The notes under the pieces: model-generated
The model's input: the letters and a program-made list of their open reading frames with translations, nothing else
Database searches by the model: none
What the model was told of the DNA's origin: nothing
Assembly: GCA_038867615.1 (NCBI GenBank)
Contig: JAWBYA010000001.1
Span: 480,001 to 544,000, forward strand
Source: Sulfolobales archaeon
Lineage (GTDB): Archaea > Thermoproteota > Thermoprotei_A > Sulfolobales > AG1
Direction: 5' to 3'
DNA length: 64,000 bases
Shown here: in pieces, positions 5,433-57,914 of the stretch
Layout of the letters: each line of letters begins with the position of its first letter
Position numbering within the stretch: the first letter of the stretch is position 1
Translations under genes and position numbers: made by a program

Positions 5433-5456
5433 CCTTCAATACTATAGTAAATAGAC
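5433..5456 (-). CRISPR. Degenerate solitary CRISPR repeat
   Basis: ccttcaatactatagtaaatagac, 4 mismatches to ctttcaattctatagtagatcgac. Confidence 0.75.
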
Positions 5457-5644
5457 CCCGCGGATTCATAAACCACTGCCAAGCCCAACAGCATCGAGCC
5501 CCCCATATACTATGAGATCATTCCCCGGACGGTTTGGAGCAATGCTCCCATCACCATCCAGAGTCAAGATAAAAATCAACCTATCACCAAAAGCCCTATC
5601 AACAAGACCCTTATAAATCTTCCCTATAGATATCAAAGGAACAG
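5433..5644 (-). mobile_element. IS607/TnpB-derived mini-element copy A fused to a degenerate CRISPR repeat
   Basis: Left end AGGG|CTGTTCC at 5644; TTTATAAG at 5610-5617; 49/54 identical to copy B over 5514-5567 vs 55995-56048; ends in GTCTATTTACTATAGTATTGAAGG (20/24 to the repeat). Confidence 0.8.
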
Positions 5645-5789
5645 CCCTCTGATAACAATAACCTCGTAGCCTTTCTCATCACAGGCTATGATCCAGGTGC
5701 GAAAAACGCAACAACCCAAATCCCAACAAACCCTAGGATATATATTTTTCACACATATAAAAAACCTGCGTAAAAATTCAGCGAAATAT

Positions 5790-5813
5790 CTTTCAATTCT
5801 ATAGTAGATCGAC
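5790..5813 (-). CRISPR. Solitary perfect CRISPR repeat
   Basis: Exact reverse complement of GTCGATCTACTATAGAATTGAAAG. Confidence 0.85.
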
Positions 5814-7752: not shown

Positions 7753-7965
7753 GTCGATCTACTATAGAACTGAGCATCGCAAAAAGAGATCCCGTGTGAG
7801 TCGATCTGCTATAGAGATAGGCCCTCGGGGGCAATGCCCCTTAGATAGCCATAAATATCAGAGAAGATCCTAGATCAGATCGATCTACTATAGAATTGAA
7901 AGCAGGGGATAAATATTGCTAGATATTGCAACCCACAAGCAGTCGATCTACTATAGAATTGAAAG
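7753..7965 (+). CRISPR. Degenerate CRISPR mini-array (2 intact + 2 eroded repeats)
   Basis: Repeats at 7753 (gtcgatctactatagaactgag), 7800 (gtcgatctgctatagag), 7879-7902 (23/24) and 7942-7965 (perfect); 39-nt spacer 7903-7941. Confidence 0.85.
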
Positions 7966-8109: not shown

Positions 8110-8188
8110 TGGTGCGGCGGCCGGGATTTGAACCCGGGATTTCCGGCGTGGCAGGCCGGCGTCCTAGACCAGGCTAGACGACCGCCGC
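8110..8188 (-). tRNA. tRNA-Gly(GCC), encoded CCA, no intron
   Basis: GCGGCGG acceptor stem, CCGGC-CTGCCAC-GCCGG anticodon arm, GGTTCAAATCC T-loop, ACCA end. Confidence 0.98.
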
Positions 8189-55633: not shown

Positions 55634-55915
55634 AGAACATAGGGTTAAGGCATAACATCTCCCCAGCGGAGATATGTGGGATCACGATAGCAAGGTTCCG
55701 AGGTGGTGCTAGAAGCTAAGAATCCCGGCTTAATGCTGCATTCCCACGATCTCCCTACATCTCAGGATCTTTTTCACTTTTTCCTTTCCAGCTGTAGGAG
55801 CGTGTTTAAAGATCTCTCCATATATTGGATAGCATGGATACTGTTCTCCTTACTATCGGCTCTTTTCTCTCTACATATCTTCCCGCTATGTTTATATGCG
55901 TCCTTAAGCCTTTTA

Positions 55916-55939
55916 CTTTCAATTCTATAGTAGATCGAC
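55916..55939 (-). CRISPR. Solitary perfect CRISPR repeat
   Basis: ctttcaattctatagtagatcgac, identical to 5790-5813 and to the reverse complement of 7942-7965. Confidence 0.88.
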
Positions 55940-56121
55940 TTGTGGGGTTATGGATTGCTGTTGAGCCTAGCGGCATGGGGCTTCCATCTACTGAGAGATC
56001 ATCCCCTGGATGGCTTGGAGCGATGCTCCCATCACCATCCAGAGTCAATATTGAGATCAAATCATCACCAAAAACCATTCCAATCAAGGCTTACAAATCT
56101 TCTGTATCGGTAAGAAAACAG
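55916..56121 (-). mobile_element. IS607/TnpB-derived mini-element copy B fused to a perfect CRISPR repeat
   Basis: AGGG|CTGTTTTCTT left end at 56121; TTTGTAAG box; CTGGATGG..GGAGC-GCTCC..CCATCCAG stem; ...ACCCCACAA|GTCGATCTACTATAGAATTGAAAG. Confidence 0.85.
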
Positions 56122-56123
56122 CC

Positions 56124-56530
56124 CTATTTCTTAGCCTCAATACTCCTCGCCTCAAAGCCTAGGTATTTATCGATCATTTTGGAGAGTGTCTCCTGGAGAT
56201 CGTTATCAGCATGGCCAAGAGTTCTGCAGAATGCTACAAGACCGCTTAGCCTTATGGTCTCTATCCTAGCCTCCTCAACAAGCTGTGAGAGCCTGAACCT
56301 GAGAGAAGCCTCCCTAGATCTTAGCTCGAGAAGCCTTCTCAAAAGATCTACGCATTCCTCTCGATACAAGATCTCGCCCTCCCCTGAGCCTCATAGATCC
56401 TCCTAAGATCCTCCTCAACCTCCCTAACAGCCCTCTCAAGAGCTTCAATATTCTCCAAAGTAACCCTCAAAAGATCCTCAAGACCATTACTATCAATACA
56501 CACATCATTCATAGGCGCCCCCCACACCAT
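56124..56530 (-). CDS. Helical/coiled-coil hypothetical protein(s); two ORFs, probably one gene frameshifted at a G run
   Basis: ORFs 56348..56530 and 56124..56369 join if CAG-GGG-AG gains one G (EAQGEGEILYREEC). Confidence 0.55.
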
Positions 56531-56533
56531 AAA

Positions 56534-56603
56534 CAGGCGTCATCAGCCCATCACAACTCAGGGCGGTTTGGGGCCCCCAGGCCCCGGGAGGACGCCATCT
56601 CCC
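56534..56603 (-). ncRNA. Fluoride (crcB) riboswitch
   Basis: GGGAGATGGCGTCCTCCC...AAACCGCCC...GGGCTGATGACGCCT: P1 GGGAG/CTCCC, pseudoknot GGCGTC/GACGCC, GCCC/GGGC stem. Confidence 0.85.
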
Positions 56604-56640
56604 AGCCGCGTCGAGCGGCAATAGCTATTACTCTTGAGGG

Positions 56641-56832: not shown

Positions 56833-57914
56833 CTAGAGGAATGGTCTTTTGACAAGCTCTCTTGTTGATTCTATTAGCCATACTCCTTTTTCTTCGGCTT
56901 TCTTGGGATCGCCTATGTATTTTAGGCAATAGAGCACCATGATGACATTGCCTGTAAATTTCTCTGGCCATTTCTTTCTAGCCCTCTCAACCCTCTTTAC
57001 AAGTCTGTCAATGAGTTTCTCGCTAGCTCTTGTCTCAGCCTCGCCAACGATCACGATACCATTATGTGAGCCATATATATCGAACTCGTATCTCTTATCA
57101 AGCACAATGGATCCGAGGCTTATCTCCAAACCCTTCTCTCTTAAAAACCCCTCGACAACGATCCTAGCTTCCTCCTCGATAGAGATTGTTATGTTCTCAA
57201 GGATCCTCTCAACCCTACTAAGTCTCCTATCAATCCTGGAGACACTTGCTTTCAAAGCGGAAACATCGCTCTTCAAGGTAGAAACGTCGGATTTTAGGGC
57301 TGGAACATCAGTCTTTAAAGTGGATACATCGGATTTCAGCAACCCTATATCGTCTCTAATTCTTAATATATCGGTTTTTATCGCAACCAAATAGCCCTCC
57401 AGGGTTGAGAGCCTCTTATCAACTTGTTTGAACCGTTTGTCCCTGGATGTTCATTCCAGTCATTTTATATTTGTTCATGGTCACATCCGGGGACTTCCAC
57501 CTCTACCCGCAGGATCAGAGAGATCCTGTGGGGTCATGGGCTGCCGTCGAGCCGAACGGCACGCGGCTCCCATCTAGCTTGTGCCCCAGACAGCTTGGAG
57601 CGCTGCTCCCATCGCCACCCGAGACCTGTGTGGGGAGACCCACACCGGGGCCAATATCTTTCAAGGCTTATAAATATCCAGGTGTTGGCGGGAGAGCGGC
57701 TTTCGGGCATGTCGCTCCCAATACTTATAAAAATTTCCAAAGCCTATTAATCCTCACTATGCATATCAAAAAGAGAACAGCCCTCTCTAACATAGTCGGC
57801 CAGTGCTTTGATCGCTTCAGCAATCATTCTAAGATCCTCTGACCTTGCCTCTTCAAGAGCCCTCTTAACGGCTTTCTCAACGATCTCCTCGAGGATTTTC
57901 AGATCTACGGACAT
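56833..57914 (-). pseudogene. Coiled-coil + PD-(D/E)XK-like paralog split by MITE copy C
   Basis: 5' part MSVDLKILEE...DYVREG (57914-57781) and 3' part FKQVDKRL...; C-terminus nearly identical to 10489..11331. Confidence 0.9.
57434..57780 (-). mobile_element. Full-length IS607-type MITE copy C (347 bp)
   Basis: AGGG|CTGTTCTC...ACAAACG|G ends; removal restores the ORF; internal TATA boxes; TnpB-tail-like LDGSRVPFGSTAAHDP; several hairpins. Confidence 0.9.

Follow-up and report, generated by a model that had tools for sequence, protein, structure and literature searches.

Why should a short, gene-less piece of transposon-like DNA carry a perfect copy of a CRISPR repeat of its archaeal host? 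The question is raised by element B, found on the minus strand of a 64,000-nucleotide (nt) stretch, hereafter the window, of contig JAWBYA010000001.1 of a Sulfolobales archaeon. The window spans positions 480001-544000 of contig C1 in the source genome, G000 (2.22 Mb in 28 contigs, 94% complete). B measures 214 nt, too little for a gene. Read from 56127 down to 55914, it features a left end starting with GGGCTGTTTTCTT..., a TATA-like box, a scaffold of about 100 nt and the repeat GTCGATCTACTATAGAATTGAAAG, followed by unique sequence. The scaffold includes the hairpin CTGGATGG-(GGGAGC...GCTCC)-CCATCCAGG, and the bases just before the repeat are ...CCCCACAA. Sequence comparisons indicate that B is a non-autonomous derivative of a tnpB-carrying insertion sequence (IS), in which the last hairpins of the right end have been replaced by the repeat, and that an unrelated TnpB family underwent the same replacement at the same position. 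The anatomy of the B family, made of left end, TATA box, tnpB-3'/omegaRNA region and host-type CRISPR repeat, is very probably as described here. Coordinates of all features are given in Table 1.

The initial annotation had supposed that the 24-mer is an authentic CRISPR repeat of the lineage, and this was borne out. A search of the window with up to three mismatches returned four matches to GTCGATCTACTATAGAATTGAAAG, at 55916-55939 (-), 5790-5813 (-), 7879-7902 (+) and 7942-7965 (+), against none expected from 100 shuffles. The copy in B is perfect. It is identical (24/24) to the mini-array repeat at 7942-7965, and fits the repeats of the main array at 22 of 24 positions. The version found in the related element A matches at 20 of 24 positions (5433-5456), again as annotated. 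In G000 the main array counts about 122 repeats with the sequence GAAGATCTACTATAGAATTGAAAG, a second array is located on contig C11, and some 30 repeats are scattered. Cas1 and Cas4 are encoded beside the main array (C1:~637.7-639.5 kb), and the type I-A genes Csa3, Cas7/Csa2, Cas5a, Cas3', Cas3'' and Cas6 on C11, all outside the window; a second Cas6 gene is found at C1:283809, besides the one at C11:23733. The profiles PF01881 and PF03787 had no match in G000, but the blank for PF01881 means little, as this profile failed also on a Sulfolobus control genome. The leaders at C1:634871, C27:5608 and window position 7753 have sequence in common and differ from B. Upstream of their first true repeat, those at C1:634871 and C27:5608 each have two degenerate ones. 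B has the traits of a candidate solitary repeat unit (SRU): a full-length match to the host repeat, no other repeat within 100 bp, a mobile carrier, and a host equipped with type I-A genes and Cas6.

The scaffold comes from a TnpB element, and on this point the initial annotation was right. Elements A, B and C are homologous: A and B are 77.6% identical over 147 nt (E value 7e-25), B and C 73% over 100 nt (E value 3e-10), and all three share the start AGGG|CTGTT and TATA-like boxes, as had been read from the sequence. C has start and core in common with A and B, but continues to ...GGGACAAACGG. Five matches to the TnpB zinc-ribbon profile PF07282 were found in G000. Two of these, at C1:985-1179 (-) and C2:203360-203554 (-), belong to the parent tnpB-only elements, which are 1.5 kb long. 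Positions 139-239 of B align by blastn to C1:972-878, directly downstream of the first zinc ribbon. The tnpB frame spans 472 codons, and is open through the scaffold-homologous region to the element end. The right half of C aligns directly downstream of both zinc ribbons (C1:970-782 and C2:203345-203163), and its left 60 nt align about 1.5 kb further (C1:2284-2220 and C2:204655-204594), at the left ends of the tnpB-only elements. By these alignments C is a miniature inverted-repeat transposable element (MITE) in which both ends of a tnpB-only IS are retained, together with its putative promoter and its tnpB-3'/omegaRNA region. B is a shorter relative, a non-coding MITE of a tnpB-only IS, probably IS1341-like and of the IS200/IS605 superfamily.

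Four stems, denoted S1 to S4, were predicted by RNAalifold in 18 full right ends. B retains S1 and S2, and lacks both S3 (CCACAGGATC...GATCCTGYGGG) and S4 (CCCYGGATRT...AYATCCAGGG). Its scaffold is therefore not continuous to the right end, unlike that of a complete TnpB omegaRNA, and the repeat stands in for about 88 nt, corresponding to the last two hairpins. Only the first hairpin was recovered by folding of the B-type copies, and a search of B and C against Rfam gave no match at gathering score or at E values up to 1. The Y1 transposase TnpA (PF01797) had no match in G000, which is 94% complete. The derivation from IS607 proposed at the outset is not supported, since no serine-recombinase TnpA is found beside tnpB. 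The sole PF00239 match (C23:6616-7053) is of the resolvase/invertase type, with an N-terminal catalytic domain and a C-terminal helix-turn-helix (placement read by eye), and has no tnpB beside it.

The fusion of scaffold and repeat is a propagated unit and not a one-off. G000 has 12 of these B-type elements, each of about 210 nt, and the sister genomes G002 and G003 add no fewer than 17; the copies lie in unrelated flanks. The switch from scaffold to repeat falls at an identical column in all the 20 non-orthologous members aligned, which bears out the single switch point noticed in A and B, and the same junction was found in 17 of the 18 loci fetched from G002 and G003. Among the approximately 30 scattered repeats of G000, 12 have a B scaffold ahead, joined at that column. 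The B scaffold was searched in 31 genomes, G000 and 30 relatives, and matches were found in 12. Among the matches listed, outside which 164 further ones lie, those running into the repeat come from G000, G002 and G003, plus a partial one from G001; of those starting at query position 63 or earlier, 25 enter the repeat (8 in G000, 12 in G002, 5 in G003) and 9 stop at 181-194. The left part of B is found also with an intact right end (C2:148731-149009 and C4:137241-137528). In all 29 B-family copies the repeat is in sense orientation. In 8 of the 20 non-orthologous copies the repeat leads into the terminal 11 nt of the transposon (GAGACAAACGG, up to three edits). The other 12, B among them, lack this terminus, and the flank begins at the last base of the repeat. 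Five or six of the 12 G000 copies lie 15-240 nt upstream of an open reading frame (ORF) on the same strand, the others being convergent or distant, and no pattern emerged. Among the matches listed, a B-type scaffold in G002 (C41:584-799) and another in G003 (C15:169404-169619) break off at query position 185, with a repeat of opposite orientation about 29 nt downstream.

The state of insertion sites was monitored in contigs of two public runs, X7 and X9, and by comparison with G002 and G003. Empty sites, a check suggested by the initial annotation, were indeed found. Two insertions filled in G002, L022 and L023, are missing at the corresponding G000 sites (C3:~89380 and C1:~204260), which measure 18 and 53 nt versus 225 and 269 nt in G002, and both flanks align. 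The ends deduced from this comparison are GGGCTG... and ...CAAACGG. C is likewise precisely absent from the X7/X9 contigs, which join 57433 to 57781 and skip exactly the 347 nt annotated. At these junctions ...GGG closes the left flank and ...CGG the right end, and the joint is ambiguous by 1 nt; such junctions are compatible with IS607, but not specific to it. At the site of B, the X7/X9 contigs have 623 other letters in place of 55914-56127. In G003 the flank homology (95%) ends at 55913 and returns at 56592. This is not a clean empty site: in place of window positions 55914-56591 stand 772 nt of different sequence, another MITE among them.

The repeat is the best-conserved 24-nt window of the family. 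In the 20 non-orthologous copies it has 42 mismatches in 480 positions (8.75%), compared to 851 in 3820 elsewhere (22.3%; binomial p 7e-15), a statistic biased by the fact that B copies were initially retrieved through the repeat itself (up to five mismatches). In none of the 20 copies is the repeat more diverged than the rest of the element. No unrecognisable or decayed repeat was seen on a B scaffold among 8 other scaffold matches inspected, all of which have the normal hairpin. Repeats borne by B elements read GTCG where the main array of G000 reads GAAG and the arrays of sister-genome records (L043, L054-L057), which have exactly GATGATC..., read GATG. Overwriting from those arrays is therefore not the source of the B-borne version. 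It is along the element lineage, and not at the host locus, that the repeat is conserved.

A second TnpB family, unrelated to the first and called E, has undergone this swap at the identical position. The parent of this family encodes a TnpB of about 500 amino acids (PF07282 and PF01385) lacking BLASTP similarity to the B/C-family protein (E value 1.1). Family E copies were collected with a scaffold-only query, devoid of repeat, which gave 41 copies from genomes G004, G005 and G012. The right end, which in the parent reads ...CAGCATAGAAA-CCCCGCCC(loop)GGGCGG-GGAGGGGTCAT, is canonical in 17 copies. In the other 24 the terminal hairpin is replaced by GATGATCTACTATAGAATTGAAAG, set just ahead of the last 12 nt. 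All 24 repeats are in sense orientation, and diverge at 15 of 576 positions (2.6%), versus 1196 of 6288 (19%) for the scaffold. The 12-nt terminus directly follows in 17/17 canonical copies, but in only 11/24 of those bearing the repeat (Fisher p 1.5e-4). In the remaining 13 the terminus is displaced (2 copies), a 13-nt partial repeat comes next (3 copies), or neither is found (8 copies). Copies ending exactly at the repeat occur among repeat-bearing forms only. In L058, L060, L070, L090 and L099 a duplicate of the last 13 nt of the repeat (ATAGAATTGAAAG) follows directly, with or without an intervening AAAG. The arrays of G012 carry the variant CTATTATAG, which is found in 3 of 8 E-borne repeats of that genome and in none of the 20 of G004 and G005. 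A scan of genome contigs, from records titled Desulfurococcales, Desulfurococcaceae or Sulfolobales archaeon, gave 6 B-type matches, 14 of the E type, which end in ...GAGACCCCAGCATARAWAA-GATGATCTACTATAGAATTGAAAG-GGGAGGGGTCAT, and 4 in arrays or leaders. B-type copies are found at loci L050, L061 and L064, from the record titled Desulfurococcaceae archaeon AG1. No family E element was found in G000. A spacer of this genome (C1:~627878-627917, 40 nt) matches in part the right end of family E, at 26/27 nt to L040 and at 20-24 nt to other members.

What could the repeat be for? The favoured answer, which is tentative and falls somewhat short of an even chance, is that B is a transposon-borne SRU acting as a CRISPR-repeat mimic, a Cas6-bound decoy similar to the RNA anti-CRISPRs (Racrs). 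This corresponds to one of three options in the initial annotation, that of a solitary-repeat or anti-CRISPR RNA. The element would be transcribed through the repeat, and the type I-A Cas6 of the host would bind and cut it. The cut product would act as a Racr-like repeat mimic, blunting CRISPR action on TnpB elements, and lineages with an intact repeat would persist and spread because of this effect. As a side effect, the repeat might serve as a recombination site, yielding the copies that stop exactly at it.

Several data weigh against the decoy. Between the TATA-like box of B and the downstream repeat lie about 150 nt, while the SRUs on record directly follow a promoter. None of the 139 spacers of G000 matches the B/C family or the rest of G000 beyond chance 17-18-mers, the spacer match to family E covers 27 of 40 nt, and a 21-mer of the repeat had no exact match in a viral contig collection. 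Orthologous copies decay at the flank rate or above it, with repeat identities of 100, 71, 83, 92, 92 and 68% in the six informative pairs; the repeat fares no better than the flanks, so that these copies are not conserved by the host. On the scaffold tree of family E, repeat-bearing and canonical copies are interspersed, with 13 changes versus a mean of 13.2 after shuffling, at least 5 being forced by well-supported branches. Because of this interspersion, the low divergence of E repeats could stem from repeated conversion rather than selection. The retrieval bias of the B statistic must be added to the list. A decoy acting in trans, moreover, does not by itself explain why each lineage retains its own repeat.

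Many of the same data fit an account, possible but on balance unlikely, in which the repeat is a passenger devoid of RNA function. It would have been gained once per family by microhomology-mediated illegitimate recombination with a CRISPR locus, its conservation would be only apparent, short-patch conversion having renewed it time and again or moved it between copies, and hairpin-less copies would accumulate because they cannot excise. Each family shows microhomologies of 2-5 nt at either junction: B has GATCT and AG|G, E has ATAGAA and GA(G/A)AG|GGGAGG. The mixing of states on the E tree, the decay of orthologous copies and the confinement of T-variant repeats to G012, the genome with T-variant arrays, go in the same direction. 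So does the loss of the terminus in repeat-bearing copies only (kept in 17/17 canonical copies, 11/24 of the E and 8/20 of the B copies), which fits a crossover inside the repeat. A locus at C1:450529 in G000, made of a promoter-type region, a repeat and GAGACAAACAG, resembles the reciprocal product of such an event. A passenger fits poorly, however, with swaps alike in place and orientation in two unrelated TnpB families, where all 29 B and 24 E copies are in sense. The arrays that read GAAG and GATG are not the conversion source of GTCG repeats, and a divergence 3- to 7-fold lower than that of the scaffold demands very frequent conversion over just 24 nt.

The position of the repeat suggests another account, in which guiding is handed over from TnpB to the host system. 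The 3' product of Cas6 cleavage, consisting of the ATTGAAAG handle, 0-12 nt of transposon end and the flank, would be loaded into the type I-A complex as a CRISPR RNA (crRNA). The DNA beside the element would be its "spacer", mirroring the omegaRNA guide, and the effector would be borrowed for homing, retention or local silencing. This is deemed improbable. The broader proposal, that the guide-proximal module of the TnpB guide was exchanged for a class 1 repeat so that adjacent DNA is read as crRNA by Cas6 and type I-A, not by TnpB, is held to be quite improbable. Were it true, a gene-less transposon would borrow the CRISPR effector of its host for retention, homing or spread; the exchange would have arisen independently in two TnpB families, and the repeat would double as an alternative recombination end. 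The repeat does occupy the place of the guide-proximal omegaRNA hairpin, sense to the putative promoter, with flank right behind it in 12 of 20 B and 8 of 24 E copies; a type I-A module and Cas6 are available in the host, and conservation is at the element and not at the host level. Yet wherever the terminus is kept, the would-be spacer opens with 11-12 nt of transposon sequence, so that its seed would not match an empty site, and such a crRNA finds its sole full match in the locus itself. The crenarchaeal type I-A motif is of the CCN type, which the left-hand ...AGGG does not resemble, and no orientation pattern relative to neighbouring genes was found. TnpB itself might alternatively bind the retained 5' scaffold, the repeat replacing dispensable 3' stems, and B would be an omegaRNA MITE served by TnpB in trans. 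S1 and S2 are retained and pair in most of the 20 copies, and full-length tnpB genes of the family are present. Such a hybrid guide is nevertheless very unlikely, as both guide-proximal stems, S3 and S4, are gone, and it is not explained why a CRISPR repeat, and no other filler, should have been taken twice and kept intact. The idea that B is a transposon-derived leader seeding new arrays, another option of the initial annotation, is close to refuted. A sequence with a putative promoter does precede a perfect repeat, and the genome encodes Cas1 and Cas4, but no second repeat occurs within 120 nt downstream in any of the 29 B copies (no spacer was gained), family E shows only the 13-nt partial duplications, free of spacers, and real leaders have no sequence in common with B.

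TnpB elements are regarded as ancestors of Cas12, and in the proposed route from one to the other the CRISPR repeat arises from the omegaRNA's 3' part. In B, too, a TnpB guide RNA has had its guide-proximal module replaced by a CRISPR repeat. The third option of the initial annotation, an intermediate of this kind, has no direct support: the repeat is not omegaRNA-derived but is the widespread crenarchaeal ...ATTGAAAG class 1 repeat of the host family, processed by Cas6, and 11-12 nt of transposon end may separate it from the flank. Array and adaptation link are moreover lacking, and the element has no tnpB gene. Non-autonomous IS200/IS605 derivatives bearing an omegaRNA exist. The C and B' forms are similar to these in having left end, promoter, tnpB-3'/omegaRNA region and right end, no gene and many copies; the B and repeat-bearing E forms differ, as a class 1 CRISPR repeat is found in place of the guide-proximal hairpins.

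The closest functional parallel is drawn from PMC10651486, according to which SRUs on viruses and plasmids act as Racrs, bound and processed by Cas6f; the survey described there took in prophages, plasmids and IMG/VR. As in Racrs, a mobile element carries a single host-type repeat, apart from cas genes and other repeats, and the host has the cognate system. Racrs differ in two respects: the carrier here is a chromosomal TnpB-derived MITE and not a virus or plasmid, and the repeat is preceded by some 100 nt of omegaRNA-derived scaffold, where Racrs have a promoter directly ahead. The mini-arrays of viruses, as presented in PMC11656645, are alike in that a mobile element takes over host-identical repeats so as to exploit or upset the Cas machinery, but they have two repeats and a spacer directed against rival viruses, whereas B has one repeat and no spacer. 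In the literature searched, as far as the partial texts go, solitary repeats were found described on viruses, prophages and plasmids, and none on an IS or MITE, although the supplementary SRU lists of PMC10651486 may hold archaeal cases; no CRISPR repeat inside a TnpB/omegaRNA element was described, unlike mini-arrays on archaeal viruses and CRISPR-associated transposons. That two unrelated TnpB families swapped alike, and conserve the repeat much more closely than their remaining sequence, argues for a direct interaction of transposons with class 1 CRISPR systems in these hot-spring archaea. Evasion, effector hijack or repeat-mediated mobilisation are conceivable forms of it, and the swap in two families points to an undescribed dealing between TnpB transposons and CRISPR immunity.

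Table 1. Location of element B, its relatives and other repeats in the window
Feature	Coordinates	Strand	Basis
Element B, non-autonomous derivative of a TnpB IS, with repeat; lacks the 11-nt terminus of the right end	55914-56127	-	X7/X9 contig joint 55913->56128; G003 homology break at 55913
B left end GGGCTGTTTTCTTACCGATAC, common to tnpB-only IS and C	56104-56124	-	sequence comparison
TATA-like box TTTGTAAG (family consensus TTTATAAG), counterpart of the box ahead of tnpB in full-length IS	56090-56097	-	sequence reading; putative promoter
Stretch homologous to tnpB 3' end and 5' part of omegaRNA region; predicted stems S1 and S2 retained	55942-56042	-	blastn
Solitary CRISPR repeat (SRU) GTCGATCTACTATAGAATTGAAAG, sense to the putative promoter of B	55916-55939	-	0 mismatches
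Element A, older member of the B family; repeat (20/24) at 5433-5456, TATA TTTATAAG at 5610-5617	5433-5647	-	alignment
Element C, 347-nt MITE of the same IS family; complete right end, four predicted stems, end ...ACAAACGG	57434-57780	-	precise absence in X7/X9 contigs
Part of C homologous to tnpB 3' end and right end of full-length IS	57434-57620	-	blastn, C 211-399 vs C1:970-782 and C2:203345-203163
Stand-alone solitary repeat, 0 mismatches; TATA-like box ~35 nt upstream, T-run ~30 nt downstream; 141 nt upstream of A	5790-5813	-	repeat scan
Leader-like piece (degenerate repeat 7753-7776) and two-repeat mini-array (7879-7902, 7942-7965), GTCG/ATCG variant as in B	7753-7965	+	repeat scan

Neither G002 nor G003 gave a counterpart to the region around A (window positions below 5920) at E values up to 1e-30. 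Stand-alone solitary repeats like that found near A, with a TATA-like box 25-35 nt upstream, occur also at C1:606099, C1:429134 and C1:450529 of G000. In the latter the promoter-type upstream region and the repeat lead into GAGACAAACAG, the B/C family's end motif, as expected of a reciprocal recombinant. The mini-array adjoins a tRNA gene (8113-8188, minus strand), and its spacer matches G003 (L036) at 34 of 36 nt. Three spacers of the sister-genome array L056 match G000 at C23:2699-3128 and C17:8638-8668, over 31-37 nt. C23 hosts also the sole serine recombinase, and both contigs may belong to a plasmid or provirus.

The two small ORFs next to B (56348-56530 and 56124-56369) have no Pfam match, and are located downstream of a fluoride riboswitch (RF01734, 46.9 bits; 56527-56611, minus strand). 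B begins right at the stop codon of the second. The point at which homology to G003 returns, 56592, falls inside the riboswitch, beside another MITE. C has about 40 blastn matches in G000. A third MITE family, D, is made of elements of about 350 nt, found at C1:12503-12700, C1:51546-51743 and some 50 other places, and in G003 at L031 (C15:~160840-161190). The right half of D is located directly downstream of two other TnpB zinc-ribbon matches (C1:12309-12488 and C1:51361-51540), and one D copy splits a B-type element at C1:235408-235941.

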